A stretch of 64,000 bases of DNA from Methanobacteriota archaeon (GCA_963769885.1 CAVYNH010000004.1:192001-256000), one strand, 5' to 3'; counted from the stretch's first letter, positions 1-64,000 are shown. A program made the numbers and translations. The notes: generated from the letters alone by a model not told the origin.

Positions 1-959
1 GCAACATGGTCACCGGCGCCAGCACCGCGAATCTGGCCGTCATCCTCATCGACGCCCGAAACGGCGTCGTCGAACAGACCCACCGCCACCTCTTCATCGC
101 CAGCCTGCTAGGCATCCCCCACTTCGTCATCTGCATCAACAAAATGGACCTCGTCGACTTCAAAGAAGATACCTACGAAGAAATCAAAGACGACCTCAAA
201 GGCTTCACCGCCAAACTCAATATCCCCGACGTCACCTACATCCCCATCAGCGCCCTCCTCGGCGACAACGTCGTCAACACCTCCACACACATGCCCTGGT
301 ACAAAGGACCCACCCTCCTCTACACCCTCGAAAACATCAACATCACCAGCGACGAAAACCTCGTCGACTGCCGCTTCCCCGTCCAATACGTCATCCGCCC
401 CCGCAACGACACCTACCACGACTACCGCGGCTACGCCGGCAAAATCGCCGGCGGCATCTTCAAGCCCGGCGATACCGTCACCGTCCTGCCCGCCGACCTC
501 ACCACCGAAATCACCAGCATCGAAACCCCCACGGGCCCCGTCACCGAAGCCTTCCCCCCCATGTCCGCCGTCATGCAACTCAAAGACGACATCGACATCA
601 GCCGCGGCGACATGATCGTCCGCGAACACAACCAACCAAAAGTCGGCCAGGACATCGACCTCATGGTCTGCTGGATGAATGCAACCCCGCTGCAGCCCAT
701 GAAAACCTACATCCTCCGCCACACCACACGAGAAACCAAGGCCATCGTCCGCACCCTCTACTATAAACTCGACATCAACACCCTCCACCGCATCGAAAAC
801 GTCCCCGAACTCGGCCTCAACGAAATCGGACGCATCTCCGTACGCACCGCCCAGCCCCTCCTTTACGACAGCTACCGCCGCAACCGCGTCACCGGCAGCC
901 TCATCCTCATCGACGAACGCACCAACGAAACCGTCGGGGCAGGGATGATCCGTGACTAA
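1..959 (+). CDS. cysN: Sulfate adenylyltransferase subunit 1 (GTPase), 5'-partial
   Basis: MVTGASTA, INKMD, PISALLGDNV, RFPVQYVIRP and C-terminal GSLILIDERTNETVGAGMI motifs; overlaps cysC; N-terminus lies outside the window. Confidence 0.95.
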   Translation, partial: NMVTGASTANLAVILIDARNGVVEQTHRHLFIASLLGIPHFVICINKMDLVDFKEDTYEEIKDDLKGFTAKLNIPDVTYIPISALLGDNVVNTSTHMPWYKGPTLLYTLENINITSDENLVDCRFPVQYVIRPRNDTYHDYRGYAGKIAGGIFKPGDTVTVLPADLTTEITSIETPTGPVTEAFPPMSAVMQLKDDIDISRGDMIVREHNQPKVGQDIDLMVCWMNATPLQPMKTYILRHTTRETKAIVRTLYYKLDINTLHRIENVPELGLNEIGRISVRTAQPLLYDSYRRNRVTGSLILIDERTNETVGAGMIRD

Positions 960-1491
960 ACACCCATCACGCGGCGTCACCGTCTGGTTCACCGGACTGC
1001 CCTGCAGTGGCAAGACCACCGTCGCCGACCACGTCGCCGACCGTCTCAAAATCCAAGGCTACCCCATCGAACGACTCGACGGCGACATCGTCCGTAAAGA
1101 CCTCACCAAAGACCTCGGATTCTCCAGACAAGACCGCGACGAAAACCTCAATCGCGTCACCGCCCTCGCCGCCAGTCTCACCACCCAAGGCAAAATCGTC
1201 CTCGCCACCTTCGTCTCCCCCTACCGCGACCGCCGCGAAAAAAGCCGCGCCGCCATCCCCGACTTCCTCGAAATCTACGCCCGCTGCCCCATCGAAGTCT
1301 GCATCCAGCGCGACGTCAAAGGCATGTACAAGCAAGCCCTCGCCGGCCGCCTCAAAGGCTTCACCGGCATCGACAACCCCTACGAAGAACCACAACAACC
1401 CGACCTCATCCTCGACACCGACAAAGAAACCATCCAAGAAAGCACCGAAAAAGTCATCGCCCTCCTTAAAACCAAAGGCTACCTCAAGTAG
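952..1491 (+). CDS. cysC: Adenylyl-sulfate (APS) kinase
   Basis: VWFTGLPCSGKTT P-loop, LDGD, DLGFS..DR.EN, RDVKGMY, FTGIDNPYEEP. Confidence 0.96.
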   Translation: MTKHPSRGVTVWFTGLPCSGKTTVADHVADRLKIQGYPIERLDGDIVRKDLTKDLGFSRQDRDENLNRVTALAASLTTQGKIVLATFVSPYRDRREKSRAAIPDFLEIYARCPIEVCIQRDVKGMYKQALAGRLKGFTGIDNPYEEPQQPDLILDTDKETIQESTEKVIALLKTKGYLK

Positions 1492-1499
1492 CCCTCCCG

Positions 1500-2318
1500 C
1501 TACTCCTCATTCACCCGATAAACCCCACGGCGATATTCAATGAGGCCCTCATCCGCCATCTTCTTAAGAATCTCCTGGGCCCGGTGCACCGGTGTCCCTG
1601 CCTTTTCCGCAAGCACGACCGCCGAAGCCGGACTCTGAAGCAGCAGTCGAAGAAGCTGGGCGCGCATCTGCCGATCCGAACCCTCGAATCGGGACTGACG
1701 CGTCCGAGGCGCGATCCCAGTCCGCCGCGCCGTCACCACCAACGCCCCGTAATCCATGAGCGCATTATGCCACTCCCGACTCCGCCCCCGCGGCAGACAC
1801 CGTGATGCGAGAGTCCATAACTCATGATCCGACGCCGACTCCGGCACCTCAAACTCAGCCACCAGAATCCGCCGGATGTTTGTATCCACCGTCACCAGGT
1901 CCTCGTTCGCCGCAAAGATACGCACCGCCGAAGCAGTATATCGCCCTACCCCGGGGACCGCATGATAGTTCCGCATCGCCTCCAACACATCCCCATCAAA
2001 CCGCTCCACGATGACACCCGCGGCCCGATGCAGGTTCACCCCCCGAGAATTATACCCCAGACCCATCCACGCCCGCAGGACCGCCTCCCGGGAGGCCGCG
2101 GCCAGCGCCTCCACCGCCGGCCAGGCCTGCACCCACCGGACATAATACGAGACGACCCTGGCAACCTGCGTCTGCTGCAACATCACCTCCGAGACCAGGA
2201 TACGGTACGGATCCGTGGTCTCGCGCCACGGCAGCGACCTGCCATGCTCCCGATAAAACCCTAAAACCCGTTCCTGAAACCCTTGAATCAGCTCCTCCGA
2301 GACCCCCTCGAGCGCCAT
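1500..2318 (-). CDS. mutY: A/G-specific adenine glycosylase, MutY-like HhH-GPD, lacking the Fe-S motif
   Basis: LPWR..DPY.ILVSEVMLQQTQV, W.GLGY, PGVGRYTA HhH, VDTNIRR, ALMDYGA. Confidence 0.85.
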   Translation of the reverse strand: MALEGVSEELIQGFQERVLGFYREHGRSLPWRETTDPYRILVSEVMLQQTQVARVVSYYVRWVQAWPAVEALAAASREAVLRAWMGLGYNSRGVNLHRAAGVIVERFDGDVLEAMRNYHAVPGVGRYTASAVRIFAANEDLVTVDTNIRRILVAEFEVPESASDHELWTLASRCLPRGRSREWHNALMDYGALVVTARRTGIAPRTRQSRFEGSDRQMRAQLLRLLLQSPASAVVLAEKAGTPVHRAQEILKKMADEGLIEYRRGVYRVNEE

Positions 2319-2375
2319 GTCAAATGCAGGAAAAAGGGTAGAAGTCTATCAAGTTTTGCCCAAAAAAGGAGAGTA

Positions 2376-3060
2376 TTAAATCCGGATCACGAAGAAACCG
2401 ACAACGAAGGCATCAATGTTCGCCTCAGTCCGTCCCACCCGAACGCGGATCGTCGGCTCACCCAGACCAAAGACAAGCGACCGCAGAATCTGCGTCTCCC
2501 CAGCCTTAATCGAAATCGTCCCGTTCCGGGTACTGCCCCAGGAGGTAGATCCCGTTATCCAGGGAAATCGAAAACGGCGTTTCAACCAGATCCTCAGTCC
2601 CGATGTTCGTGACCCTGGCCACCGGACCGATGCCGCCGGTAATCTCAATCGAGACCGGGCTTGCCAGGATGATGGTGAAACTCGCGTTCTTCGGAAACTC
2701 CACATTGCCCGCCTTGTCATCAGAATAATACGTCACCGTGTGCAGACCATTCCCCGAGACAATGAACTGCCCCCCATACACCGAGAAATTCCCAGAATCA
2801 ATCTGATAATACGTGGCATTGACCCCGGACAGATCATCCGAGGCGTTCAATAACACCGTCACATTACTGATATAGTTCTGCCCCTGCATGATACCTTGGA
2901 GAACACAGGTCGTGACCGGTGGGGTCGTATCGTTCCCGCTGAGACGTGCACCGCCCCCTATTTGTGATGGTGGGGATGGGGTAGCGGCCATCGACCAGCC
3001 CGAAAGGCTAGCCACGAGAAAACAAAGTAGGATGAAAGTGCGTAGTGGCATAGTCTTCAT
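2376..3060 (-). pseudogene. Secreted Ig-like domain protein split by a 1-nt frameshift (true pseudogene or sequence error)
   Basis: Signal peptide and DTTPPVT..SDDLSGV..HTVTYYSDDKAGNVE domain. Removing one G at 2528-2530 joins LLGQY to RNGTISIKAGETQ..FVVGFFVIRI of ORF 2376..2720. Confidence 0.7.
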
Positions 3061-3230
3061 TAGACTCCCCACGTATCTATACCAGAGGGAATTAATAAGG
3101 TTTCTCCTTCAAGTCTTACCAGAACAACCGTTACACACCATGCAGTGTAGTGAAGGCCAGAGACTGTGCTGACTGAGACGTTTCTCCCGTAAACGCGCGT
3201 TTCCAGGGTCAAAAGAGGGGCACCATCTCG

Positions 3231-5390
3231 TCATTGAAGAATCTGCACTCGGAAATGCCATAGAATCCCGATATGGTCCAGGAGCCAGTGTAATAGAGGA
3301 AACACGGGTCGTTCGACGATGAACGGCATCCGGACATGGAGGCTCCCCCAGTCGCTTTCGACGCCGTACACATCCCGGGCTTTGCATCTAATCGTATAGG
3401 CACCACGTTTCGCCCAGGTATGGGCGATGGTTTGGATCTGCCCAGAAGGAAATGGTCCGATCCAGCCACTCGTAGTATTGTCTCCCCAGTCGATGAAATA
3501 GGAGAGGGTATCGTTGTTTGAATCGGTTGCGACCACCGTATAGTTGTAAGACCTGCCTGGTTTTCCGGTCGCGGGCCCGTCAATGGTTGGGGTCGTTGGT
3601 GGGATGTTGTCTCCGGCAATGAACGCCCAGGTGGAGTCGCAGGCGATGATACCCACGCCGTCAGTGACCGTGAGGGTGACGGTGTAGTTTCCGGCGGTGT
3701 GGTAGGTGTGGGTGGGGTTCTGCTCGTCAGATGTCGCGCCGTCGCCGAAGGTCCAGTGGTACTGATAGGGTGGTGTGCCGTTCTCGGCTGATCCGGTGAA
3801 GTGGAGGGGGGTTTCGACGGCGCCATGATAGGGGCCGTGGGCGTGGGCGATGCAGCCGCCGATGATCGTGAAGTCTGCGGGGGAGATGGCGGTGGCGCTG
3901 GTGGTGCTGGTGGTGACCGTGATTTTGACGCGGCAGTGGGTTGATCCGGTGCCAGCGACGAGCCATTGGTAGCAGCCGTTGTCTAGCAGATCCGTGGCAA
4001 TGGGATACCAGGGTCCTGAAGGACCAGTGAGGGAATAGAAGAGGTCGACTGTGGCATCGCCTTGGGCTAGGGGGACGGCGGAAAGCCAACGGATGTTGCG
4101 GATGGCGTTGCCAGTGAAGGTTTCACCGCCGTAAGGGGATCTGAGGTGGACCGACAATGCGGTCGGCTCTTGCCAAGGGGAGATGGCGCATAGGACGTTG
4201 TGCGATTGTTCGATGACGAAGATGACGTCTTCGCGGCCGTCGTGGTCGAAGTCGCCGTCGACGCGCAACATGACGCAGTCTCCGGTCATGAAGAAGGTAG
4301 CATCGGCAGACCAGTATCCTGTACCGTAACCGAGGTAGACTTGGGCGACGTTGGTGGTAAAGGTCATGATGTCTAGGTATCCGTCGGCGTTGAGGTCGCC
4401 GCATTGAACGCGGTAGTCTCCGGTTGTCGGGAGGCCGGTGGAGGCTTGGGTCCAGGTGTTATTGTTTTTATGGTAGAGGTAGGCGCGGACGCCTTGGTTG
4501 TCGTAGGAGATGGCGAGGTCGTCGGTGCCGTCGTTATTGAGGTCGCCGTGATCGAGGCCGACGGCGACGGCGGTGGGGAGTCCGTTTTGGCTGAGGGTGA
4601 AGTTGAAGTGGCCGTCGCCGAGGTAGACGTTGGTGTTGTATTTAGTCCCGATGAAGTCCATGTTTCCGTCGGCGTTGATGTCGCAGGTTTTGAGGTCGTC
4701 GTTGGTGTTGTCGATGGTGTTGGTCCATTTGTGGGTCCAGGTGCCGTTGCCGTTGTTTTTGTAGACGTGGTAGCCGTTGCCGTAGCCGAAGGATTGGCTG
4801 ACGAGGTCGAGGAGGCCGTCGTTGTTGAAGTCGGCGAAGTCGGTGGCGCCCATGCCCCAGGTTTCGCCGCCTGTTCCGAGTCCGGTGGCCCAGCCGGTCC
4901 AGTTGATGCCGGTGCCGTCGCCGAGGGCGGCGCCGATGAGGGTGTCGCCGAAGCCGGGTGTTGAGCTGTAGTCGTGGTGGATGCCCCAGGCGATGTCGGG
5001 GTGGCCGTCAAGGTTGAGGTCGCCGATGGCGCAGCCGCCGTAGCCGAAGTCGCCGGTTTGGTGGATGGTCCAGGTGCCGGTGCCGTCGCCGAGCCAGGCC
5101 ATGATGCCGTGTTCTTGGGTGTTGATGTAGGGGTTGCCGTGGTCGCCGACGCTGAGGATGTCGAGGTGGCCGTCTTGGTTGATGTCGGCGAGTTCGACTT
5201 CCATGGGGCCGCCGTCAAGGCTGGGGGTGTTGAGGCCGGTGGATTTGGGGATGAAGGTGAGTTGGTTCGAGGAGGGGCGTGCCCCGGCGTTGGATGATCG
5301 GGCGGTCCAAGGGGTCAGAGATGTTGAGCAGAGGAGGATTGTTAAGACGCCCGCGAAAAGGATGCGGTGAAGCGGTGTGTGGTGGTTCAA
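3231..5390 (-). CDS. Secreted FG-GAP/VCBS beta-propeller protein with PKD domains
   Basis: Signal peptide; repeated D(I/L/F)NxDGxxD loops; PKD WTFGDG..NPTHTY and YFIDWGD; TTG start after GGGGGA. Confidence 0.9.
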   Translation of the reverse strand: MNHHTPLHRILFAGVLTILLCSTSLTPWTARSSNAGARPSSNQLTFIPKSTGLNTPSLDGGPMEVELADINQDGHLDILSVGDHGNPYINTQEHGIMAWLGDGTGTWTIHQTGDFGYGGCAIGDLNLDGHPDIAWGIHHDYSSTPGFGDTLIGAALGDGTGINWTGWATGLGTGGETWGMGATDFADFNNDGLLDLVSQSFGYGNGYHVYKNNGNGTWTHKWTNTIDNTNDDLKTCDINADGNMDFIGTKYNTNVYLGDGHFNFTLSQNGLPTAVAVGLDHGDLNNDGTDDLAISYDNQGVRAYLYHKNNNTWTQASTGLPTTGDYRVQCGDLNADGYLDIMTFTTNVAQVYLGYGTGYWSADATFFMTGDCVMLRVDGDFDHDGREDVIFVIEQSHNVLCAISPWQEPTALSVHLRSPYGGETFTGNAIRNIRWLSAVPLAQGDATVDLFYSLTGPSGPWYPIATDLLDNGCYQWLVAGTGSTHCRVKITVTTSTTSATAISPADFTIIGGCIAHAHGPYHGAVETPLHFTGSAENGTPPYQYHWTFGDGATSDEQNPTHTYHTAGNYTVTLTVTDGVGIIACDSTWAFIAGDNIPPTTPTIDGPATGKPGRSYNYTVVATDSNNDTLSYFIDWGDNTTSGWIGPFPSGQIQTIAHTWAKRGAYTIRCKARDVYGVESDWGSLHVRMPFIVERPVFPLLHWLLDHIGILWHFRVQILQ

Positions 5391-5696
5391 CCTCTGTTCC
5401 CCCGTTCAGATTCATTAGGTGGTGCCGTATTTTAATGTTGTGCTAAGGAGGGGTGGGTTATCCTTGGTTCTTTTGGTGTGGTAGTAGGTGTAACCCGAGG
5501 AAGTCAGCCTGGTTTTCGTCTGCTCGCAGGGGGAATCCGGGTCGCCGACGCAGCACAGACCGTGCCCCGGATATTCTACCATTAATTTCCTATTCCCAAT
5601 CTGTAACTTAAGTAAGTCTCGCTATTCAAAACTATGTTAGAAGGAATTCTATATTATTATATCTGCAAGAAATAGAAATGACGTATGAAGGATGAA

Positions 5697-5724
5697 AAAA
5701 GCGCAGGGGAAGGGATTTGAACCC
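5697..5724 (-). repeat. att-like direct repeat of the tRNA-Leu(CAA) 3' end
   Basis: aaaagcgcaggggaagggatttgaaccc vs 8022-8049 aaaagtgcaggggaagggatttgaaccc (27/28). Confidence 0.92.
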
Positions 5725-5752
5725 TTGTTTATCGGTACATAGGCGATTTTTA

Positions 5753-6601
5753 CTAGGGAACATATGTTGCTGTTGCAAGAGCTTGACCAAGGTAAAAACT
5801 TATTTTATCAAATTGATTAACGGGGAACCAAATCCTGAGTCCTTTAAAACCAATTAGCCAGTTCAAATTATCATTTATTGATTGCAACCCTTTTAATCCG
5901 AAAGACACCCCTCGGTAGCCGGAATTAATTGTTACCACTGTCCACAGTAAAAGAGGGCTAAACAAATTGAAAATCAACGAAGGAATCCCTACGACAGCAG
6001 ACAGTAATAATGGAATAGCCACCAACATTGCAAGATTAAGATTATTAAAATGAAACATCCCATAGGTAAAAAGCATAAAAAGAATTATCATAGGTAAAGT
6101 CAGCAACCCAAATATTACATCATTTCCTGCTAACACCGAATACATGGACAGCAAACAAAAGACATTGCTAAACGCTAAATGAAATTGAGAAAACCTAAGA
6201 GAGCCCACCAGTTTTTCAACAGCAGGATGAACTTGATCTGCCGTCACCAACTTCTGTGCCTTTTCAACACTCATACCTTTTGGCAATAGACCATACTTAT
6301 TGAACTCCACGACTGCTTCCTTGAAGATAGGAACCGCTTCTTCCCTGGTTGTCGTCTGGTTCAATCGTGCTTTGAAATCAACAAGATACTGCTGTAGGTT
6401 CTGATACTGTTGCCTGGTGAGTTTCACAGTGGTATCCCCAAATCCCTGGATACCACAGGCTTGAGTAGTCACTTCAACAAGGTCATTAGTTAGTGATGCT
6501 TTGGCCACATTGAAGTTGATGCTTGGTGCGACTGCAACACCAATGAACAAAAGAATGATACCAATTGCAGAACATTTCCCAATCAGAGGATATTTTTTCA
6601 T
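5753..6601 (-). CDS. Hypothetical exported/membrane protein
   Basis: 282-aa ORF; N-terminal signal-like segment, helical middle, hydrophobic C-terminal half; AT-richer codon usage. Confidence 0.8.
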   Translation of the reverse strand: MKKYPLIGKCSAIGIILLFIGVAVAPSINFNVAKASLTNDLVEVTTQACGIQGFGDTTVKLTRQQYQNLQQYLVDFKARLNQTTTREEAVPIFKEAVVEFNKYGLLPKGMSVEKAQKLVTADQVHPAVEKLVGSLRFSQFHLAFSNVFCLLSMYSVLAGNDVIFGLLTLPMIILFMLFTYGMFHFNNLNLAMLVAIPLLLSAVVGIPSLIFNLFSPLLLWTVVTINSGYRGVSFGLKGLQSINDNLNWLIGFKGLRIWFPVNQFDKISFYLGQALATATYVP

Positions 6602-6741
6602 CTATTCTGCCCCATTTGAAAATGAAGAATACTTCTCTATTTAAAATCTCCGTTAACGTGATTTCTCCAGAAATGAACCGGTATTTCGGAGTTCAAATCA
6701 TTTTTTTGTATTCTAGAATTCTTCTCCAGTAAAAATAAGAA

Positions 6742-6768
6742 AAAAGTGCAGGGGAAGTGATACCAACC
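6742..6768 (-). repeat. Degenerate second copy of the tRNA-Leu 3' end
   Basis: aaaagtgcaggggaagtgataccaacc; first 16 nt identical to 8022-8037; 23/27 overall. Confidence 0.8.
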
Positions 6769-6893
6769 TCAAGTTTAAATCTCACGGATCCGTGGGGGGG
6801 TACCTGGTTCCCTCCTAGTGGATTGTTCAATATTGGCCTGTTCTTTGGTTTGTTGAGCAAAGCGGGACTGCTCGTCTTAAATCAGCGAAACAA

Positions 6894-6916
6894 GGGACCG
6901 AGGGTGATTTGAACCC
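6894..6916 (-). repeat. tRNA 3'-end-like motif with a different acceptor strand (CGGTCCC)
   Basis: Reverse complement GGGTTCAAATCACCCTCGGTCCC: T-loop plus acceptor-like 3' strand. Confidence 0.55.
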
Positions 6917-7020
6917 ATCTCATATATCCGATATAGTAAAACCCAAAACAACCAAATCAGAATGAACTTCAGCCTTAAAAAAACGACAGGCACAATAAGA
7001 ATTTGTTGGAAGTGCAGAAC

Positions 7021-7785
7021 ATGAACGAGAATGCGTTGTACGAGGCTATTTTCAAACGAAAATCGGTTAGAGATTATGACCCAACGCCCATTGACTCCAA
7101 GCCCCTCGAAGAGATTTCAACGAATTTGCAGTCCTTAAAGCCAATGGTGACAGGGATTAAGACAGAGTTCAGGATTATTTCGCCAAATCAAGTAACCAGA
7201 AAGTTTAGCAACAAAGCGCCCCACTTCATTGCGGCGTTCTCAGAAGCAAAAGACGCTTACAAAGTCAATATTGGGTTTATGCTTCAACAAATGGACCTTT
7301 ATTTCTCGTCGAATGGGTTAGGCAGTTGTTGGTTGGGGATTCCGCAACCGACCAAAGACGTGGTAGATTCTTCAGATCTTGAGTTTATTATTCTGATGTC
7401 ATTCGTAAATTCAAAAGAAACACTTCACAGGACGAACGTTTCGGAGTTCAAAAGAAAGCTCCTTTCGGATATTACCAACATCAAAGATGCTGACGAGTTG
7501 TTAGAACCAGCTCGTCTTGCTCCGTCAGCGGTAAACATGCAGAACTGGTATTTTACTGGCAATAAGAGCGCAATCCATGCCTATTCAAACAGGGCTGGAT
7601 TTCCTATTACTTTCGTTGGGGGAAGTTATTATCCTGTCAACATGGGCATTGCTCTTTACCATTTGCAGCTAGCGGGACAGCACTTTGGGTGGAAAACCAA
7701 ATTCGTCTTCGACAAGTCAAAAGATAAAAGTCCCCCTAAGAATCTGGATTACGTTGCAACCGTAGAGAGGGCATTTAACCTATAG
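7021..7785 (+). CDS. Nitroreductase family protein (two domains)
   Basis: IFKRKSVRDY, LGSCWLG, ARLAPSAVNMQNW, GIALYH. Confidence 0.9.
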   Translation: MNENALYEAIFKRKSVRDYDPTPIDSKPLEEISTNLQSLKPMVTGIKTEFRIISPNQVTRKFSNKAPHFIAAFSEAKDAYKVNIGFMLQQMDLYFSSNGLGSCWLGIPQPTKDVVDSSDLEFIILMSFVNSKETLHRTNVSEFKRKLLSDITNIKDADELLEPARLAPSAVNMQNWYFTGNKSAIHAYSNRAGFPITFVGGSYYPVNMGIALYHLQLAGQHFGWKTKFVFDKSKDKSPPKNLDYVATVERAFNL

Positions 7786-7790
7786 TGAAA

Positions 7791-7810
7791 TGCCCAGGGC
7801 GGGTATTTGA
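7791..7810 (-). repeat. tRNA 3'-end-like motif (acceptor strand CCTGGGC-A)
   Basis: Reverse complement TCAAATACCCGCCCTGGGCA. Confidence 0.45.
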
Positions 7811-7844
7811 TTTTAAGTCATCCAGACAAGAAAAAAGAATCAGA

Positions 7845-7869
7845 GTGCCGCAGGAGGGGATACTGAGCC
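7845..7869 (-). repeat. Degenerate tRNA 3'-end-like motif (acceptor strand CTGCGGC-A)
   Basis: Reverse complement GGCTCAGTATCCCCTCCTGCGGCAC followed by a T-rich tract. Confidence 0.4.
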
Positions 7870-56493: not shown

Positions 56494-56508
56494 ATGGTTA
56501 GTCCAAGG

Positions 56509-57810
56509 CTATCGGGCCGGGGTTTTTGTAGTTAACTCGACGGCTTGGCGGGAGGCTGCATCTATGGTCTTGTCGGCGTCAAGGGTGAGGAATTCGTGCT
56601 CCAGCATGAGTGGTGTTCCGTTCACAATGGTGGTGCTGACGTCGCTGCCGCGGACCGCGTACGTGAGGTGTGAGACGGGGTCGTGGACGGGGGTGAGGTG
56701 TAGTTTGTGCAGGTCGATGAGGATGAGGTCGGCGAGGCTGCCTTCCGTGAGGCTGCCGAGATGATTCTGTTGGAGGCTGGCGGCGCCGTTGACGGTGGCC
56801 ATGTCGAGGAGGGTCTGGGCGGGCATGACGGTGGGGTCCCAGCGGTGTTGTTTCTGGCCGAGGGCGGCGAATTTCATGGTGTCGAACATGTCGAGGATGT
56901 TGTTGCTGGCGGCACCGTCGGTGCCGAGGCCGACGCGAAGTCCTGCGGCGAGCATCTCCGGGATGGGAGCGTAGGCGCCGGTGCCGATCTTGTAGTTGCT
57001 GACGGGACAGTGGGCGACCGCGACGCCGGCGTCTTTCATAGTGGCGATCTCGGTTTTAGTGATCCAGCCACAGTGGGCGAGTACCATGCGTGGGGTAAGG
57101 AGGCCGAGGCTGTGGAATTGTTCGATGGGGCGTCTGTTGTATTTGTTCTCAACGTCGTAGACCTCGTCACGAGTCTCGGAGCAGTGGCTGTGGAGGAGCA
57201 CGTTGTTCTTGGTCGCAAGGTCGAGGCAGCGGGCGAGCGTCTCCGGGCTGCAGGTGTAGGCGCCGTGGGGGGCGACGACGGGATGGACCAGGGGGTCGTG
57301 CTGCCAGGTTTTAATGAATCGTTCGCAGGCGGGGAGGAGCTCGTTGGCTTTGTATTCAGCGGTGTCGAAGTCGAGGATGCCGAAACCGAGGAACCCGCGC
57401 ATCCCGGCTTTTTTGGTCACGGCGGCGACGTGTTCTTCGAAGAAGTACATGTCCAGAAAGGTGGTGGTCCCGGAAGCGATCATTTCGAGCAGGCCGAGGG
57501 TGGCGCCGGTCTCGATCGATTTGGGGGTGAGGCGGGCTTCGACGGGCCAGATGCAGTGTTGCAGCCAATCATTCAGGAGGCGGTCGTCGCCGTAGCCGCG
57601 TAGCAGCGTCATCGGCAGGTGGGTGTGGAGGTTGACGAGGCCGGGGAGGACGAGGGTGTCTTTGCCGTCGATTTTGTAGTCTGCCTCGACGGTGATCGGC
57701 CGTTCAGAAATCTGAGTGATGGTCTCTTGCTCTACAAGAAGGTCGCCGTGGAGCCGCCGCCGTTTCTCGTCTTGGGTGAGGATGGTGGCGTGTTTAATGA
57801 GTAGGCTCAT
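56509..57810 (-). CDS. Amidohydrolase, MTA/SAH/5'-deoxyadenosine deaminase family
   Basis: PGLVNLHTH, LRGYGDD, DMYF, HCSET, HCPVSN, LGTDGAASNN. Confidence 0.9.
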   Translation of the reverse strand: MSLLIKHATILTQDEKRRRLHGDLLVEQETITQISERPITVEADYKIDGKDTLVLPGLVNLHTHLPMTLLRGYGDDRLLNDWLQHCIWPVEARLTPKSIETGATLGLLEMIASGTTTFLDMYFFEEHVAAVTKKAGMRGFLGFGILDFDTAEYKANELLPACERFIKTWQHDPLVHPVVAPHGAYTCSPETLARCLDLATKNNVLLHSHCSETRDEVYDVENKYNRRPIEQFHSLGLLTPRMVLAHCGWITKTEIATMKDAGVAVAHCPVSNYKIGTGAYAPIPEMLAAGLRVGLGTDGAASNNILDMFDTMKFAALGQKQHRWDPTVMPAQTLLDMATVNGAASLQQNHLGSLTEGSLADLILIDLHKLHLTPVHDPVSHLTYAVRGSDVSTTIVNGTPLMLEHEFLTLDADKTIDAASRQAVELTTKTPAR

Positions 57811-58246
57811 CGGTGGGCTCGTCGTCGAAGAGGGGCGTGGCTTTCGCCCAGCTGTCCTCGAAGTAGCGGTTGAGTTTCTGTATCATGTCTTTTTCCACGG
57901 TCCAGATCCCCAGCTCGTTCTCCTGGATGGGTCCGGAGAGGATGAGGGCGCGGTTGTCGCCGAGGATGAAGTTGCCTTTGATGCCGCTGTGGTGCTTGAC
58001 GGCCATGCCGGTGAACATGGCCTTGTTGGGGTAGTCGTTGACGACGATCTTGGCGTTCTTGGGGAGGTCGATGCTGCCCATGGTCTCGGCGATGATGCGG
58101 GGGTTTTTGATTTCCTCGAGCGTCCATTTGTGGGTGGGCAGCGTCGCGGGGGCGGCGCGGTTGAAGCGCCGTAGCCCGAGTTCGATGGCGAAGCCGACCA
58201 CGACGACGCCGACGATTAGTCCGAGGATAAACGATACGACATCCAT
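57794..58246 (-). CDS. Hypothetical protein with N-terminal TM and PLD/TrmB-like degenerate domain
   Basis: TM helix; NFILGDNRALI..WT..YFEDSWAKA; no HKD motif. Confidence 0.7.
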   Translation of the reverse strand: MDVVSFILGLIVGVVVVGFAIELGLRRFNRAAPATLPTHKWTLEEIKNPRIIAETMGSIDLPKNAKIVVNDYPNKAMFTGMAVKHHSGIKGNFILGDNRALILSGPIQENELGIWTVEKDMIQKLNRYFEDSWAKATPLFDDEPTDEPTH

Positions 58247-58405
58247 CTCTCTCTAGTCTCCTTATGAAGAGTATTCGGGAGGCTGGATAAATAGATTGCC
58301 TTATTGCACTGGAACAAGGGGGTTTCCTTTGCTTGTTTTTTCCTGGTTTTTGAGGGGACGAAATTTTATTATACAACCCCGTCTTTATTGTGGGAAGGAT
58401 TTCCC

Positions 58406-58870
58406 ATGCATCGAGTGTTTTCACTCATGTGTATACTCGTTCTCGTAGCGGGCATCGCATCAACGGCAACTTCTGGGACCATCCGCACCCCAGCGCACTA
58501 CAGAGTCTTCGCTGGCGGGGACATCTTTTACGTGGACCCGTTCAACTGGACCTGGCATGGAAACCTTCACGAGTACAGGACGAACTACACGTCTCAGACC
58601 TATGGATTCTACTACAAGACGTGCATTTACATCATCAACCAAGGCGGGATGTCACTCGGCTGGTACTTCCTCTTCCTTCAAGAGAAAAAGACAAGAACCA
58701 TCTTCAATAAAAACCAGCTCCCCTATCAATTCATCATCTACAATTTCACAGGATCGATTAGTCTGTCGTATTATTACCACCCTCACGGCAGCATGGGCTG
58801 CGGTTTCAGGCTCATCGGCAACGCCGAATCCTACGCCCCCTACAATCCTTTCCCGCCTCTGAATAAGTAA
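58406..58870 (+). CDS. Hypothetical secreted protein
   Basis: Signal peptide; aromatic beta-rich body. Confidence 0.7.
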   Translation: MHRVFSLMCILVLVAGIASTATSGTIRTPAHYRVFAGGDIFYVDPFNWTWHGNLHEYRTNYTSQTYGFYYKTCIYIINQGGMSLGWYFLFLQEKKTRTIFNKNQLPYQFIIYNFTGSISLSYYYHPHGSMGCGFRLIGNAESYAPYNPFPPLNK

Positions 58871-58938
58871 TCGTCACAAGGTAATCTTTATGTGCCATTG
58901 ATGAATTCAGGTCAAATCTTGTTCCTGGGGATTCTCCT

Positions 58939-59856
58939 ATGGATACCATCCTTCAGACACGCATCGCGGACCTCAAGAAGAAGCACCACATCCTGCTCCT
59001 GGCGCACAACTACCAGCCGCCAGAGATCCAGGACGCGGCCGACTTCATCGGCGACAGCCTCGACCTCGCCATCAAAGCCACCAAGACCACAGCCGACGTC
59101 ATCGTCTTCTGCGGCGTCTCGTTCATGGCCGAGGCCGCCAAGATCCTCAACCCGGACAAGACCGTGATCCTGCCCGACCCCACCGCCACCTGCCCCATGG
59201 CCAACATGGCCACCCCCACCGACCTGCGCCTCCTCATGAAGAAACACCCGAAGGCCGCCGTCGTCGCCTACATCAACACCAACGCCGACGTCAAGGCCCT
59301 CGCCACCATCTGCTGCACCAGCGCCAACGGCGTCACCGTCGTCAACAGCCTCAAAGAAAAGGAGATCATCTTCGTCCCGGACAAGAACCTCGGCGCCTAC
59401 ATCCAACAGCAGGTCCCAGACAAGAAACTCATCCTCTGGCCCGGGTACTGCCACACCCACCAGGACATCCTCCCCGACGACATCCGCACGCTGAAGGCCG
59501 CACATCCGAAGGCCGAGGTCCTCGCCCACCCCGAATGCCGCCCCGAGGTCATCGCCCTCGCCAACCACGTCTGCTCCACCAACGGCATGGTCACCCGCGC
59601 CAAAGCCTCGACCACGACCGAGTTCATCATCGGCACCGAACAAGGCCTCTGCTACCGTCTCGAAAAAGAAATACCGAACAAAAAATTCTACCCGATTCCT
59701 AAGGCTTTCTGCCCCAACATGAAGAAAATCACCATAGAAAAACTCATAAAGAGCATGGAGACTTTAGAGCCAGAGGTCCACCTTTCACCGCAGATTATGC
59801 AACAAGCTAAACAACCACTCCAACACATGATGGACCTGGGGATGAGCAGACCATGA
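58939..59856 (+). CDS. nadA: Quinolinate synthase
   Basis: LAHNYQ, GDSL, FCGV.FMAE, CPMA, YIN, CTSAN, HPEC, CPNMK. Confidence 0.97.
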   Translation: MDTILQTRIADLKKKHHILLLAHNYQPPEIQDAADFIGDSLDLAIKATKTTADVIVFCGVSFMAEAAKILNPDKTVILPDPTATCPMANMATPTDLRLLMKKHPKAAVVAYINTNADVKALATICCTSANGVTVVNSLKEKEIIFVPDKNLGAYIQQQVPDKKLILWPGYCHTHQDILPDDIRTLKAAHPKAEVLAHPECRPEVIALANHVCSTNGMVTRAKASTTTEFIIGTEQGLCYRLEKEIPNKKFYPIPKAFCPNMKKITIEKLIKSMETLEPEVHLSPQIMQQAKQPLQHMMDLGMSRP

Positions 59857-61022
59857 GAGAAGTCTTCCTCGACTACGCCTCGACCACACCCATCGACCCT
59901 GACGTGATCAAAGCCGTCACCACCGCCTTCACCGCCGACATCGGCAACCCCTCCTCCATCCACCACTTCGGCCGCAAAGCCCGCGAAGACGTCGAAGCCA
60001 ACCGCGACGCCGTCGCCCGGCTCCTCGGCGCCAAACACGACGAGATCATCTTCACCGCCGGCGGCACCGAAGCCGACAACCTCGCCATCAAAGGCGTCGC
60101 TTACGCCCACCCCGAAAAAACCAAGACCAAAGGCCCCCACATCATCACCAGCGCCATCGAACACCCCGCCGTCCTCGAACCCTGCCGCAGCCTCGAAGCC
60201 GACGGCTACCAAGTCAAGTACCTCCCTGTCGATAAATACGGCCTCATCGACCCCACCGATGTCGAACACAGCATCACCAAAAACACCTTCCTCATCACCA
60301 TCATGACCGCCAACAACGAGATCGGCACCATCCAACCCATCCAAGAAATCGGCAAGATCGCCCATGAGCACAACATCCTCTTCCACACCGACGCCGTCCA
60401 AGCCGTCGGTAAACTCCCCATCGACGTCAAAAAACACCACATCGACCTCCTCAGCCTCTCCGCCCACAAATTCTACGGCCCCAAAGGCATCGGCGCCCTC
60501 TACGCCCGCAACGGCGTCCAAATCAAGCCCCTCATCCACGGCGGCGGCCACGAAAAAGGACTACGAAGCAGCACCCTCAACGTCCCCGGCATCGTTGGCC
60601 TCGGCAAAGCAGCCCAGCTCGCCAGCCAACGCCTCATCACCGACGTCGACAAAATGACACAGCTGCGCGAACACCTCATCAACCGCACCCTCGCCATTGA
60701 AGAAAGCTACCTCAACGGCCACCCCACCAAACGCCTCTGCAACAACGCCCACTTCCGATTCACCGGCATCGAAGGCGAAAGCCTACTCCTCGGCCTCGAC
60801 GACAAAGGCATCGCCGCCAGCACCGGCTCCGCCTGCTCCAGCCAAAAACAGCAGGCCAGCCACGTCCTCCTCGCCATCGGCCTCACCCCCATCGAAGCCC
60901 ACGGCAGCCTGCGGTTCAGCCTCGGCCGCACAACCACAAAAGATGATCTCGATTACGTCGCCGACCAACTCCCCGCGATCGTCGGCCGCCTCCGCCAGAT
61001 GTCCCCGATGTGGAACCGCTAA
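59853..61022 (+). CDS. iscS: Cysteine desulfurase (IscS/NifS)
   Basis: LDYASTTP, GNPSS, IEHPAV, HTDAVQ, SAHKFYGPKG, STGSACSS. Confidence 0.95.
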   Translation: MREVFLDYASTTPIDPDVIKAVTTAFTADIGNPSSIHHFGRKAREDVEANRDAVARLLGAKHDEIIFTAGGTEADNLAIKGVAYAHPEKTKTKGPHIITSAIEHPAVLEPCRSLEADGYQVKYLPVDKYGLIDPTDVEHSITKNTFLITIMTANNEIGTIQPIQEIGKIAHEHNILFHTDAVQAVGKLPIDVKKHHIDLLSLSAHKFYGPKGIGALYARNGVQIKPLIHGGGHEKGLRSSTLNVPGIVGLGKAAQLASQRLITDVDKMTQLREHLINRTLAIEESYLNGHPTKRLCNNAHFRFTGIEGESLLLGLDDKGIAASTGSACSSQKQQASHVLLAIGLTPIEAHGSLRFSLGRTTTKDDLDYVADQLPAIVGRLRQMSPMWNR

Positions 61023-61035
61023 AACCAAGGATGTT

Positions 61036-61764
61036 ATGAAGAACGCCGTCTGCCTCCTCTCCGGAGGACTCGACTCCGCGGTCACCGCCTACGTGGCCCA
61101 CCACGACGGCTACGCGGTGCACGCCCTCTCCTTCTCCTACGGCCAGCGTCACAACCGAGAGATCGCCAGCGCCCGGGCCATCGCCACAGCAGTCGGCGCC
61201 ATCCGCCATAAGATCCTCCCGCTGCCGCTCGACCAAATCGGCGGCTCCTCCCTGACCGCCAGCGAGCCGATCGCGGACCACGACTACCGTGACATCGGCG
61301 CCGAGATCCCCCGGACCTATGTGCCCGCCCGCAACACGATCTTCCTTTCCTTCGGCCTTGCGTATGGGGAAGTCGTCGGCGCAGACGCCATCTACATCGG
61401 CGTCAACGCCGTGGACTACTCCGGGTACCCCGACTGCCGCCCCGAGTACATCGAGGCGTTCCAGCGGCTCGCGAACGTCGCGACCAAGCAAGCGGTCGAG
61501 GGCCATCCCATCAGGCTGCAAACGCCGCTCATCAGCCTCTCCAAGGCCGACATCGTCCGGCTCGGCACGCGACTTCATGTTCCTTTTGAGCACACGTGGT
61601 CCTGTTACCGTGGGGGCGCGAAAGCGTGCGGGCGGTGTGACTCCTGTCTTTTACGCTTGCGCGGCTTCCAGGACGCGGGTATCCTCGACCCTCTCACGTA
61701 CGAAACCTACCCAGCTTGGTACACGCTGAAGAAAACAGGGAAGAAACCGGAAAAGAAAAGATAA
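61036..61764 (+). CDS. queC: 7-cyano-7-deazaguanine (preQ0) synthase
   Basis: SGGLDS, YGQRH, YVPARN, YPDCR, SCY..CGRCDSC. Confidence 0.96.
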   Translation: MKNAVCLLSGGLDSAVTAYVAHHDGYAVHALSFSYGQRHNREIASARAIATAVGAIRHKILPLPLDQIGGSSLTASEPIADHDYRDIGAEIPRTYVPARNTIFLSFGLAYGEVVGADAIYIGVNAVDYSGYPDCRPEYIEAFQRLANVATKQAVEGHPIRLQTPLISLSKADIVRLGTRLHVPFEHTWSCYRGGAKACGRCDSCLLRLRGFQDAGILDPLTYETYPAWYTLKKTGKKPEKKR

Positions 61765-61770
61765 GAGGAT

Positions 61771-62595
61771 TTATTTTTTCGACTCGTTGGTGTCCTTCTT
61801 TCGATGGACGTAGTCCCGGACATCCAGGATGATCGGAATCGAAATCAGCAGCGCCAGCACGATGCCCAGGCAGATCAAGCTGTCCTCATGCACATTGGCC
61901 ACTGTGTTCTTCCCATGCAGGACATCCTCGAAGAAGAGGTTGATCGTCCCGACCCAGGGGATCTCCCCGCGGGCCTTCCCGGTGATCCACTGCGGCAGCA
62001 CCGGCTGCGGACAGATCTCGGAGACCTGATCAATGATCCTGTTGTGATCCCCTTTTGTGAGGAACCCGGAGTGCGTCCAATCTGGCTTGGCATCATGGAG
62101 ATTAAGAGCATCGATGGTGATTGACGTCGCATTATAGATCCCGTAGTCCCTGATCGTGTAATAGGTCTGTCCGTTCTGAAAGGTGACGTTGACCCAGCAC
62201 ATCGCCCGATGGATGATCTGGCTGACGTCGGAGTGTCCCATCGGTTTATAGATCACCACGTCACCGTAGTTCCCGTACGTTTGCAGGCCGTTCTGCGCCT
62301 GCGCCCCGCTGATCGGGCCCCCATGTGGGACCACATCCTTTACCGAGGTGACCTTGACGACCAGGACCATGTCCCCGGCGTCAATCGTGCCGAGACGGCC
62401 GAACGGCGCATTGTCATGCTCCATGCTGCCGGACTCGATCGCCACCATCGGCGCCGCGAGCCACTGCCCCGTGTACGCCCACAGCAGCATCAGGATGATG
62501 AACACGGCCAGGAGCGCGACCAATACGTCGCGGACGAGGGCTACCGTGGAATTCTCTGTATGCCAGAAACGCCGAAAAGCTGTAGGTACGTTCAT
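61771..62595 (-). CDS. Signal peptidase I (archaeal S26B/Sec11 type)
   Basis: ESGSME, IIHRA, TKGDHN..D, flanking TMs. Confidence 0.9.
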   Translation of the reverse strand: MNVPTAFRRFWHTENSTVALVRDVLVALLAVFIILMLLWAYTGQWLAAPMVAIESGSMEHDNAPFGRLGTIDAGDMVLVVKVTSVKDVVPHGGPISGAQAQNGLQTYGNYGDVVIYKPMGHSDVSQIIHRAMCWVNVTFQNGQTYYTIRDYGIYNATSITIDALNLHDAKPDWTHSGFLTKGDHNRIIDQVSEICPQPVLPQWITGKARGEIPWVGTINLFFEDVLHGKNTVANVHEDSLICLGIVLALLISIPIILDVRDYVHRKKDTNESKK

Positions 62596-62708
62596 GGGAC
62601 ACCAGGGTTAACCGCTAGGCGAAGACAGAAGGGAACTCGAGTCGACCGTGAACCCCTCCACTTGTCTGTATCCCCTGCACATACAAGGGTCATTTAAACT
62701 TTACCGTC

Positions 62709-63248
62709 TCACCGGCCCCGCACCGCCGACTCAGCCACGCGGGACTTCCGTTGCGCGGCCACCCGCGTCTTCGTCCCACAGACCGGACAGACCGAAACCT
62801 TGTCCGCGAACCGCCGTCCGCAGCCCGGGCAGCAGACCACCCACGTGATCCGCCTGGTGATCCCCTCCTGCGACAGGCCTAGGTACTTCACCTGCAGGCT
62901 CCGTGCGAGGTTCTGAATCGAATAATCATCGGTGAGGACAATCGCCTCCTGCACCGGGTCCATGTTGATATCAAGGGCGACCGCCAAGACCTCCAGGTCC
63001 GTCGGCGACAGCCGCGCGATGTCTCCGGATCGGGTCGCGGCCTTACGAACCCGCGCCACGGAGGCCGCCGACGGCTTGTAGATGCCCAACCCCTTCTCCT
63101 GCAGGAGCTGAAACGACCGGTAATCCCTCCCGCCGGGACGCAGCTCCGCCGCGACCCCAGGCGCCGTAATCATCGGCCCACTGCTGATGTTGATCGGCTT
63201 CCCCGAAAGGAGCGCCGAGGTATCAAGGATGTACGTCGGCTGTTTCAT
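62709..63248 (-). CDS. nob1: NOB1-family PIN endonuclease with Zn ribbon
   Basis: ILDTSA, LSPTD, TDDYSIQN, CPGC..CPVCG. Confidence 0.93.
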   Translation of the reverse strand: MKQPTYILDTSALLSGKPINISSGPMITAPGVAAELRPGGRDYRSFQLLQEKGLGIYKPSAASVARVRKAATRSGDIARLSPTDLEVLAVALDINMDPVQEAIVLTDDYSIQNLARSLQVKYLGLSQEGITRRITWVVCCPGCGRRFADKVSVCPVCGTKTRVAAQRKSRVAESAVRGR

Positions 63249-64000
63249 GACCCTAATCGTCCACGGATCCGCACCGCAAGCTCGGTGACGGGACAGGTGC
63301 TCTGCGAGCCGTCCGTCATGTTCCGCAGCGTCACCACACGGTCCTCGAGCTCCTTGGGCCCGATGATGACCGCGTACCGGGCATGCTGCGCCGAGGCATA
63401 CTTCAACGACTTGCCGATCCCACGGCGCACTAGGTCAAGATCTACGGTGAGTCCCTGGCCCCGCAGCTGCGACGCGACCGACAGCGCGGTCCCCAGCGCA
63501 GCCTCTGAGACTGGCACGATAAAAACATCCAGCGACGGTTCCGGGAACGAGAACCCCTCCGTCTCCAACGCCAGCAGCACCCGGTCGAACCCGATCGCGA
63601 AACCGGCCTGGGGCACCGGGCTGCCCCCAAACAACGCAACCAGCTCGTAGTCCCCGCCGCCACACAACTGCTTCTCCGCACCCAACACGGGCGCCTCAAG
63701 CTCAAACACCAGGCCCTTGTAGTAATCCAACCCGCGGACGATCCCCATCTTCACCCGCGCATCCGGAATCCCGAACGACTCCTTCAACAGACTGAGGATG
63801 CCCTGCAGTCGGCCTAGCTCTGCGACCGCCGCCGGACTCTTCGAGACGTACGCCCGGATCTTCTCCGCCTCCGGCGTCTGAAGCATCTCAAGGAACACCT
63901 CGGCCTCCTGCTGACTGACGTCGTTGGCCCGCAGCGCCGAGAACAAATCCTCAAACTGCGACTTATCGATAAACGGCAACAAGTCCTTCTTCACCGCATC
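63245..64000 (-). CDS. hisS: Histidine--tRNA ligase, 5'-partial
   Basis: VRGLDYY.G.VFE, CGGG.Y, GFAIGFDR, anticodon-binding domain. Confidence 0.95.
   Translation of the reverse strand, partial: DAVKKDLLPFIDKSQFEDLFSALRANDVSQQEAEVFLEMLQTPEAEKIRAYVSKSPAAVAELGRLQGILSLLKESFGIPDARVKMGIVRGLDYYKGLVFELEAPVLGAEKQLCGGGDYELVALFGGSPVPQAGFAIGFDRVLLALETEGFSFPEPSLDVFIVPVSEAALGTALSVASQLRGQGLTVDLDLVRRGIGKSLKYASAQHARYAVIIGPKELEDRVVTLRNMTDGSQSTCPVTELAVRIRGRLGS

Follow-up and report, generated by a model that had tools for sequence, protein, structure and literature searches.

Kilobase-scale blocks of keto/amino strand skew, anchored at gene starts and ends, in the genome of an uncultured archaeon

Introduction

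Why should the two strands of an archaeal chromosome exchange their base composition every few kilobases, in a pattern that does not simply follow the direction of the genes? This question is raised by a 64,000-nucleotide stretch of DNA assigned to a Methanobacteriota archaeon (GCA_963769885.1 CAVYNH010000004.1:192001-256000; G000:C4:192001-256000 in our numbering), which is referred to below, at its full length, as the window. An original prediction, made from the nucleotide sequence alone, held that its + strand alternates between C/A-rich and G/T-rich blocks. The genome (G000) is metagenome-assembled and comprises 2.09 Mb in 7 contigs, with a GC content of 55%; placement of its eIF2-alpha gene assigns the lineage to uncultured Thermoplasmatota of sediments and wetlands.

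Strand skews routinely serve to find replication origins and as evidence of mutational processes, and those of archaea are now ascribed to gene orientation. The genome described here breaks both of these readings, with kilobase-sized units that have defined starts and with gene direction overridden in a quarter of the coding DNA. Whatever lies behind them, the blocks chart, from sequence alone, a directional process on the DNA of an archaeon that has not been cultured.

Results

Alternating skew blocks in the window and the genome

The presence of alternating skew blocks was confirmed in full. Calculated per 1 kb, the GC skew of the + strand ranges within the window from -0.46 to +0.49, with an AT skew of opposite sign, and its standard deviation (0.211) is approximately five times that of shuffled sequences (0.045 +/- 0.004). 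The block limits originally drawn by eye agree with this profile to within a few hundred bases, and all five of the hand counts proved exact (22681-22740, C34:G7; 8161-8220, C22:G3; 5441-5490, G21:C4; 51961-52020, C24:G10; 54121-54180, G31:C7). Genome-wide, the mean absolute skew is 0.195 per kb, and it climbs from a value of 0.08 where the DNA is AT-rich to 0.28-0.44 where GC is highest.

A change from G to C on the + strand is termed here a 'down' flip and a change from C to G an 'up' flip, while S denotes the DNA-level skew. Flips called at a threshold of abs(S) > 0.3 number 167 ('down') and 166 ('up') in 2.09 Mb, which corresponds to about 333 blocks with a median length of 5.2 kb. Within the window, maximum likelihood placed 'up' flips at 3333, 9202, 15554, 24845 and 52840, and 'down' flips at 5388, 11887, 21813, ~48610 and 58426. 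Contigs of the Logan resource from four public runs span the region 48.6-61.8 kb of the window and are either identical to it (X1) or ~4-5% diverged (X2, X4); the diverged strain accounts for 521 variant rows, with totals that pool both polarities. Moreover, an independent assembly from the same genus (G001) carries the same type of skew.

The skew resides mainly at third codon positions and in spacers

Because strong skew yields long shadow open reading frames (ORFs), reading frames were fixed by means of Pfam matches. In the 20 window genes validated in this way, nearly all of the skew is found at codon position 3, and two classes can be distinguished. Fourteen genes (class C) have a coding-strand GC skew at third positions (GC3 skew) of -0.27 to -0.87, with A3 > T3, while the remaining six (class G: HhH-GPD, pseudouridine synthase, ADP-forming acyl-CoA synthetase, PAC2, eIF2-alpha and RadB) have values of +0.15 to +0.63, with T3 > A3; the genes for L44e and a PIN protein joined the latter class later. 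Genes of the same orientation can therefore carry opposite skew, as the original prediction had stated for two pairs: RadB (+0.63) versus the AAA_33/APH kinase (-0.87), and the acyl-CoA synthetase (+0.20) versus PFOR (-0.51).

For the whole genome, gene calling relied on a self-trained codon model of three classes, with shadow frames represented explicitly; it gave 1739 genes (87% coding) and recovered all validated window genes. Among 1114 GC-rich genes the GC3 skew is broadly distributed, peaking at -0.7 to -0.8 and tailing off as far as +0.7; it is below -0.2 in 64% and above +0.1 in 20% of them, and both strands are alike. GC3 and AT3 skews are strongly anti-correlated (r = -0.87), and the joint rise of G and A on the coding strand, known as purine loading, was thus not found in this genome. 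Class-G genes are genuine, since ten of ten strong representatives drawn at random from the rest of the genome contain Pfam domains in the called frame.

At fourfold-degenerate sites, extreme class-C genes have C.82, A.08, G.05 and T.04 (C:G ~16:1), and extreme class-G genes G.70, T.13, C.12 and A.05; to our knowledge this skew is among the strongest known. Correspondingly, NNY codons end with C in 94% of cases in the former and with T in 65% in the latter, while NNR codons end with A in 76% and with G in 91%, respectively. Since the two codon sets are complementary, a preference imposed by tRNAs or by the mRNA cannot be their source, but a pressure on DNA strands can. AT-rich islands were said to lack the pattern, and they do (A.31, C.22, G.18, T.29 at fourfold sites).

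The skew also extends beyond silent positions. Non-coding flanks share the sign of the adjacent gene up to a distance of 200 nt (-0.2 to -0.35 or +0.2 to +0.26), and codon positions 1 and 2 covary with position 3 (r = 0.52 and 0.41). It is strong enough to alter the amino-acid usage of proteins: from class C to class G, Thr falls from 9.7% to 4.9% and Val increases from 5.3% to 9.6%, with His, Asn and Pro on the class-C side standing against Glu, Arg, Gly and Cys on the class-G side. The amino-acid shifts, together with the skew of the intergenic flanks, therefore indicate a substitution bias on DNA and not codon selection.

Blocks and genes

The C/A-rich strand is the coding strand for ~75% of the coding DNA, the remaining ~25% being mirror coded, i.e. 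with codons that end in G and T. In a regression of S, a gene's own orientation gave an R2 of 0.28, the S of its two neighbours 0.52, and both together 0.64; the orientation of the neighbours added nothing, and own orientation kept an independent effect (coefficient -0.18). The S values of neighbours located on opposite strands are correlated in convergent (r = 0.50, n = 187) as well as divergent pairs (r = 0.48, n = 176), and convergent pairs are of the C/G type in 44%, C/C in 21% and G/G in 1% of cases. Of lone genes placed between opposite-strand genes, only 28% are mirror coded.

In 269 of the 678 genes of at least 300 amino acids (aa) the skew is internally heterogeneous, and in 32 it changes sign, from C to G in the 5'-to-3' direction in 24 cases and from G to C in eight. 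Three of the genes with internal flips were confirmed by Pfam, namely GyrA (codon 820), NrdD (codon 891, within the catalytic domain) and a 2325-aa PAS protein (C5:150598-157575), in which the skew passes from -0.61 to +0.48 at codon 1640. Flips within intact genes mean that inversions, codon usage at the gene level and mosaics of horizontally transferred DNA cannot be the cause. Recent inversions are further excluded as an explanation by conservation of the pattern in the congener. The sign of the skew does not follow the coding strand of every gene, as the orientation R2, the mirror-coded genes and the 32 internal flips demonstrate; in agreement with the original prediction, it is a strand-specific property of the local DNA that gene orientation does not explain.

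The anaerobic NrdD mentioned above (G000:C6:188272-191859, locus L117) has 1195 aa and an NRDD domain divided into two stretches, and may hold an insertion, e.g. an intein.

Anatomy of block borders

Of the sharp 'down' flips, 67% fall no more than 150 nt from a gene start (23% for random positions), and TTTAAATA, a predicted box of the archaeal TATA type, is enriched at them. For 'up' flips, 50% lie within 150 nt of a stop codon (random, 22%), and T-runs are enriched. The idea that the process acts from fixed sites is supported for one class of flip, the 'down' flips with their gene starts and TATA-like motifs.

In a border profile restricted to third positions of GC-rich genes, a plateau of -0.62 to -0.68 is attained 250-500 nt from the 'down' flip, and the skew takes ~1 kb to build up from the 'up' flip. 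With this fast onset and the 1-kb 'up' ramps, a block starts abruptly, holds a plateau and ends diffusely. A 'square wave', with both flip types equally sharp, had been suggested by two-segment change-point intervals and was dropped in view of these ramps. An apparent rise of the skew toward 'up' ends is partly due to AT-rich DNA near 'down' ends, and in GC-rich genes it persists only in blocks >6 kb. Runs of co-oriented genes carry a C-type signature of -0.3 to -0.4, which declines in the course of the final 3-4 kb and is ~0 at the 3' end.

Around a 'down' flip, the stronger the skew on one side, the weaker it tends to be on the other (rho -0.41, p = 3e-4); at 'up' flips there is no correlation. 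Two separate one-way units therefore fit the data better than one two-way source, which argues against the common source of both sides that the original prediction had placed at these points. A midpoint test gave a mean abs(r-0.5) of 0.162 for 'up' flips between 'down' flips and 0.153 for the reverse, values constrained by the minimum detectable block length. Divergent spacers between two class-C genes show the expected sign but, with only 16 usable pairs, are too noisy to distinguish one point source from a pair of transcript starts. The 48 AT-rich islands without skew (269 kb in total) are situated at 'down' rather than 'up' junctions in a ratio of 11:1, and the upstream flanks of tRNA genes are polar (26:7).

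Search for replication origins

The genome contains two Cdc6 genes. Upstream of one of them (C6:260359-261630, - strand), two origin recognition boxes (ORB; TTTCGAGTGGAAAC and GTTCCAGTGGAAAT, each with GGGG four bases on) flank an AT-rich stretch of ~60 nt; this is the textbook arrangement of an archaeal origin, which we predict at G000:C6:261728-261928 (locus L131:3728-3928), outside the window. The ORB core TTYSAGTGGAAA was found only at C6:261745 and 261903 in this region, plus one chance copy inside a gene, and at none of the other flips. The cumulative skew of contigs of 0.4-0.8 Mb has no replichore-scale trend, and neither sign dominates large regions. The presence of a single ORB/Cdc6 origin and the lack of a replichore trend indicate that canonical replication is not the cause of the skew and that the flips are not canonical origins. 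Dispersed canonical origins, one form that the replication from many sites envisaged in the original prediction could have taken, are therefore excluded.

The predicted origin itself coincides with a 'down' flip, to the right of which there is a 4.4-kb block without any co-oriented gene. If this single case reflects replication, the leading strand would be A+C-rich, as it is in yeasts (PMC3459929).

A NucS/EndoMS gene (C6:259505-260320) adjoins this cdc6 gene.

Conservation in relatives

The same-genus genome G001 (50-57% GC) has a keto/amino skew of lower amplitude, with GC-AT correlations of -0.5 to -0.9. Comparison of 88 orthologous pairs (77% amino-acid identity) gave a correlation of GC3 skew of r = 0.74, with mean absolute values of 0.51 in G000 and 0.32 in G001; at this level of identity, such a correlation means that polarity has been maintained at conserved places while silent sites turned over. 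On the amino strand, fourfold sites with G in G001 and C in G000 number 1057, against 149 of the reverse kind. Divergent 'down' junctions are kept between the two species, while 'up' flips shift, as exemplified by the diphthamide synthase gene (-0.28 in the window, +0.17 in G001).

Other members of the family, of 29-44% GC, show ordinary purine loading, with GC-AT correlations of +0.5 to +0.9. The skew thus arose within one genus of a low-GC family, alongside a 20-point rise in GC, and for this reason a comparison of sister genomes could identify the responsible factor. Two loci of other Thermoplasmatota (L031 and L028, 41% GC) are also of the keto/amino type (correlations of -0.65 and -0.54, mean absolute skew 0.21 and 0.15), so that the phenomenon extends beyond this genus and beyond genomes of high GC.

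A 20-kb AT-rich region of the window (28.65-48.9 kb) is missing from G001, in which a HAD hydrolase gene (+) is directly convergent with PAC2 (-). From this adjacency it follows that the ancestral C/A-rich block consisted of one small hydrolase gene and five anti-oriented genes, including those for L44e and eIF2-alpha.

Loss of a repair gene was considered as a cause and rejected, since an MGMT-EndoV fusion, UDG and NucS are present in this genome, its congener and most relatives, with no genus-specific difference; MutS was found in none of the 21 genomes searched. The fusion is represented at G000:C4:163426-164301 by matches to O6-alkylguanine-DNA alkyltransferase (PF01035) and endonuclease V (PF04493) in one 430-aa frame, and the two are adjacent or fused in most relatives searched.

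Self-comparison of the genome by BLAST revealed 49 repeated intervals, mostly small mobile elements. One such element, of ~710 bp with a 174-aa ORF, is present in ten copies (G000:C7:64564-65275 and nine more on C7 and C4), seven of which are 98.6-99.9% identical and hence recently active. A substitution spectrum could not be derived from these copies, which at 99% identity offer too few changes and lie mostly in weakly skewed DNA.

Organization of the window

The blocks and genes of the window are as follows (block limits with two dots; they rest on the skew profile, Pfam and flip calls).

1..3333: + strand C/A-rich block
3-959 (+): CysN-like GTPase, C-rich coding strand
952-1491 (+): APS kinase, C-rich coding strand
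1500-2318 (-): HhH-GPD glycosylase, mirror coded, GC3 skew +0.57
2506-3072 (-): ORF, mirror coded
3333..5388: + strand G/T-rich block; flip 3333 lies ~100 nt inside the 3' end of the FG-GAP/PKD gene
3231-5390 (-): FG-GAP/PKD protein gene, coding-strand GC3 skew -0.72
5400..8150: AT-rich island without skew; its flanks make a 'down' flip (left S +0.82, right S -0.55)
8026-8111 (-): tRNA-Leu(CAA), adjoining the island
8150..9202: + strand C/A-rich block; the skew fades through the pseudouridine synthase gene
8240-9262 (+): ATP-phosphofructokinase (PFK), 340 aa, PF00365 E = 1e-108, GC3 skew -0.80
9414-10169 (-): pseudouridine synthase, GC3 skew +0.15
10172..11887: + strand G/T-rich block, holding the next two genes
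10172-11224 (-): NMD3
11221-12099 (-): EamA transporter; 'down' flip 11887 (support interval 12 nt) lies 212 nt inside the frame
11887..15554: weak + strand C/A-rich block with anti-oriented genes only
12476-15247 (-): ADP-forming acyl-CoA synthetase fused to GNAT, GC3 skew +0.20, AT3 skew -0.54
15554..21813: + strand G/T-rich block; 'up' flip 15554 lies 174 nt inside the PFOR 3' end
15380-18934 (-): PFOR, GC3 skew -0.51
19739-20773 (-): histone-deacetylase-family gene; small ORFs on to 21968
21813..24845: + strand C/A-rich block, opening within a divergent promoter region at a sharp 'down' flip (support interval 6 nt)
22162-23175 (+): [NiFe] hydrogenase small subunit, GC3 skew -0.79
23172-24635 (+): [NiFe] hydrogenase large subunit, GC3 skew -0.83
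24845..27900: + strand G/T-rich block
25541-27583 (-): ribonucleotide reductase, GC3 skew -0.68
28201..28863 (+): HAD hydrolase gene, GC3 skew -0.43, directly convergent with PAC2 in the same-genus genome
28650..48900: AT-rich inserted region without skew, missing between the two flanking genes in the same-genus genome
48610..52840: + strand C/A-rich block; all genes on the minus strand and mirror coded (GC3 skews +0.27 to +0.63)
48762-49535 (-): PAC2, mirror coded
49695-50555 (-): eIF2-alpha, mirror coded
50677-50967 (-): ribosomal protein L44e, mirror coded
51026-51697 (-): ORF of the mirror-coded block
51854-52507 (-): RadB, mirror coded, GC3 skew +0.63
52840..58426: + strand G/T-rich block; all genes on the minus strand
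52558-53643 (-): diphthamide synthase; 'up' flip 52840 lies 282 nt inside its 3' end
53576-55168 (-): AAA_33/APH kinase, GC3 skew -0.87
55231-56493 (-): DUF401
56509-57810 (-): amidohydrolase
57794-58246 (-): ORF
58426..61800: + strand C/A-rich block, opening at a 'down' flip in a divergent promoter region
58939-59856 (+): NadA
59853-61022 (+): class-V aminotransferase, GC3 skew -0.84
61771..64000: weakly C/A-rich + strand with minus-strand genes (skew profile, Pfam)
61771-62595 (-): ORF, GC3 skew 0.00
62709-63248 (-): PIN, GC3 skew +0.28
63245-64000 (-): histidyl-tRNA synthetase, C-terminal part

Several of these features deserve comment. For the first gene of the window, an EF-1alpha identity was rejected in favour of the CysN-like GTPase followed by APS kinase, and the gene cannot be used as a marker of high expression. 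The tRNA-Leu(CAA) gene meets the AT-rich island 5400-8150 with its 3' end, a position that an integrated element would be expected to take, and ORF 7003-7785 of the island, of which a 93%-identical copy is present in the same-genus genome, is probably mobile. A shadow ORF of 385 aa without a Pfam match (8123-9280, -) outlasts the true PFK gene on the other strand, and because of such antisense frames the calling of genes by the longest ORF fails in this genome. The 923-aa acyl-CoA synthetase combines CoA-binding, ligase and ATP-grasp domains with a C-terminal GNAT acetyltransferase, which is the architecture of Pat-type protein acetyltransferases. Long ORFs of the AT-rich insertion 28650-48900 are located at 29069-33301 (1410 aa), 33294-34892 and 39180-44933 (1917 aa). 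Relatives align with the eIF2-alpha gene product from residue 24-26 on, and its true start is probably ~25 codons downstream.

Discussion

It is highly probable that the blocks represent a genuine substitution bias that acts on DNA strands domain by domain, is specific to the lineage and has its anchors at the starts and ends of genes. As to its cause, we favour, with a probability of roughly 35-40%, a process of mutation or repair that is strand-biased and linked to transcription units. The location of flips at gene starts, TATA-like boxes, stop codons and T-runs points to such units, as do the size of the blocks, their sharp start and fuzzy end, the effect of gene orientation and the uncoupled strengths of divergent blocks. 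Strand-biased damage or repair might be coupled to the opening of DNA across whole transcription units, in which case the process would begin at promoters, run to leaky ends and spill over onto oppositely oriented neighbours via putative read-through and divergent antisense transcription. Under the dominant direction of transcription, the non-template strand would lose G and T or, in an equivalent view, its partner would lose A and C by deamination-type changes. Such a process would have arisen, or been greatly strengthened, in this genus during the rise from ~35% to 55% GC.

A number of observations weigh against this explanation. The polarity is opposite to that of every transcription-associated asymmetry known to us, in which the coding strand is G/T-rich. 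Highly expressed genes are not more skewed, and ribosomal protein genes are not the most biased; a cluster of the latter (C4:271.9-288.2 kb), encoded on one strand, swings smoothly from -0.81 to +0.84, and the block with the L44e, eIF2-alpha and RadB genes is mirror coded, the HAD hydrolase gene being the only co-oriented gene of its ancestral form. Of 294 blocks, 93 are wholly co-oriented, but 12 lack any co-oriented gene and 46 have an anti-oriented gene between co-oriented ones, and co-orientation of the first gene from the 'down' end, seen in 73% of blocks, does not exceed the background of 75%. The preference of AT-rich islands for 'down' flips is not predicted by transcription either. 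For the transcription-unit model to hold, the dominant factor would have to be read-through and divergent antisense transcription or else a process that merely starts at promoters.

The explanations were weighed by rough likelihoods over ten observations (flips at starts, flips at stops, anti-oriented expressed genes, the orientation effect, polarity, the plateau, anti-correlated 'down' flanks, islands at 'down' flips, the lack of replichore skew and the lack of scaling with expression), which leaves the remainder of the probability to causes not considered. A possible, though doubtful, alternative is a footprint of recombination or break repair, in which recurrent breaks or recombination starts at G-to-C flips would be followed by 5'-to-3' resection that leaves the 3'-ended strand single; deamination of this strand (C to U, A to hypoxanthine) or biased heteroduplex repair, fixed by fill-in, would produce the skew. 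Resection had already been proposed in the original prediction, and its polarity fits, since the keto strand is the one whose 3' end points at the 'down' flip. AT-rich islands, as sites of integration or exchange (e.g. beside the tRNA-Leu gene of the window), and the polar tRNA flanks would both fit, mirror-coded genes of high expression pose no problem, and a skew that climbs with GC is expected if GC-biased conversion shares its cause; the amino-acid shifts, too, match those reported for GRINS (genetic repeats whose nucleotide skews are intense; PMC8256042), for which a similar origin has been proposed. However, the skew does not fade with distance from the 'down' flip: its plateau is held for kilobases, and it becomes stronger, with higher GC, toward the far end. 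The negative correlation of the two sides, the clustering of 'up' flips at stop codons, the independent effect of gene orientation and the small number of repeated intervals, the domains themselves not being repeats, also speak against this footprint. We tentatively entertain, in addition, an undescribed, promoter-anchored, one-directional DNA transaction that treats the strands differently over 5-kb units, either origin-independent synthesis or a strand-specific mutator or repair system; it may also underlie the similar skews of other Thermoplasmatota.

Origin-independent replication (e.g. recombination-dependent or R-loop-primed) from ~167 dispersed promoter-type sites is unlikely. Its forks would meet in ~1-kb zones near gene ends, with an A+C-rich leading strand, as in yeasts (PMC3459929), and with genes co-oriented 3:1 with the forks. 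The shape of the blocks, the co-orientation of 75% of the coding DNA, the behaviour of anti-oriented genes, which resembles that of head-on genes, and the 'down' flip at the one predicted canonical origin, with a right-hand block devoid of co-oriented genes, are consistent with it. The absence of ORB boxes elsewhere, the lack of replichore-scale skew despite a canonical origin, 'down'-flip sides whose strengths correlate negatively and not positively, lone opposite-strand genes that mostly keep their own C-type coding, and a ribosomal protein cluster that is not consistently co-oriented with the blocks all argue against it; moreover, we know of no archaeal precedent for ~167 initiation sites in 2.1 Mb. 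Selection on codons or messages, with C/A-ending codons or unstructured A/C-rich mRNAs favoured and weakly selected genes left to drift, would account for the preference of 64% of genes for C- and A-ending codons and for a GC3 (~0.8) far in excess of intergenic GC (~0.48). It is nevertheless very improbable: mirror-coded ORFs, which are true genes, use the exact complement of the preferred set and not a relaxed version of it, the skew runs on into intergenic DNA, flips within single genes and tracks neighbours on the other strand, and we did not find in this genome the signature of translational selection, i.e. one preferred codon set, strongest in highly expressed genes (such as those for ribosomal proteins) and limited to coding DNA. 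Given a metagenome-assembled genome in 7 contigs with foreign AT-rich islands, a chimera of assembly or binning, recent inversions over a replichore skew, or a horizontally acquired mosaic might also be suspected. Such an origin is hardly credible, since public-run contigs are identical or 95-96% identical across 13 kb of the window, the independent same-genus assembly repeats the pattern gene by gene, flips occur inside intact conserved genes, the foreign islands are exactly the unskewed parts, and neither sign prevails over large regions.

These results have a practical consequence, as gene finders and origin predictors based on composition are misled in genomes of this kind, in which shadow frames can exceed true genes.

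Comparison with known systems

Full-text searches of the literature did not reveal any account of keto/amino domains of kilobase scale that extend through an archaeal genome. A preprint by Mottez et al. (10.1101/2023.11.15.567178) attributed the local skews of archaea to gene orientation, and local departures from Chargaff's second rule do follow gene direction here (28% of variance, 75% co-oriented). However, with ~25% of the coding DNA mirror coded, flips inside genes and a skew that extends into spacers, this account does not suffice for the genome under study. The pattern also differs from purine loading, since G goes with T and not with A, whereas the low-GC relatives show the usual association of G with A.

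Transcription-associated mutational asymmetry, known from E. coli and mammals, renders the coding strand G+T-rich, with an effect that scales with expression. It resembles the present skew in being tied to transcription units, in affecting silent sites and flanks, and in its keto/amino type. In contrast, the coding strand is C+A-rich in most genes of this archaeon, and its ribosomal protein genes are not the most skewed.

Many local domains with jumps at fixed sites are likewise typical of multi-origin eukaryotes (yeast skews, human N-domains), and the A+C-rich leading strand of yeasts (PMC3459929) has the polarity that would be needed if 'down' flips were starts. Unlike in these systems, we observed plateaus with short ramps instead of long linear declines, one canonical ORB/Cdc6 origin without further ORB sites, and anti-correlated strengths on the two sides of a jump. 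Yeast skews are small, and the amplitude in this archaeon is thus far larger.

The nearest published phenomenon is that of GRINS, repeats of >500 bp with >80% identity to a region of the same cluster, which have been described in bacterial polyketide synthase clusters and linked to gene conversion (PMC8256042). GRINS display intense, correlated GC and TA skews with a mean absolute value >0.15, strongest at third positions, and shift amino-acid usage between Gly, Val and Cys on one side and Pro, Thr, His and Gln on the other (PMC8256042). The blocks described here share the intense coupled keto/amino skews with a third-position peak, at values above the GRINS limit, the occurrence of both signs on one strand with abrupt changes, and comparable amino-acid shifts (Val, Gly, Cys, Arg and Glu against Thr, His, Asn and Pro). 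They differ in that the skew tiles a whole archaeal chromosome in unique, non-repeated sequence, and in that it is anchored at gene starts and ends and conserved between species.

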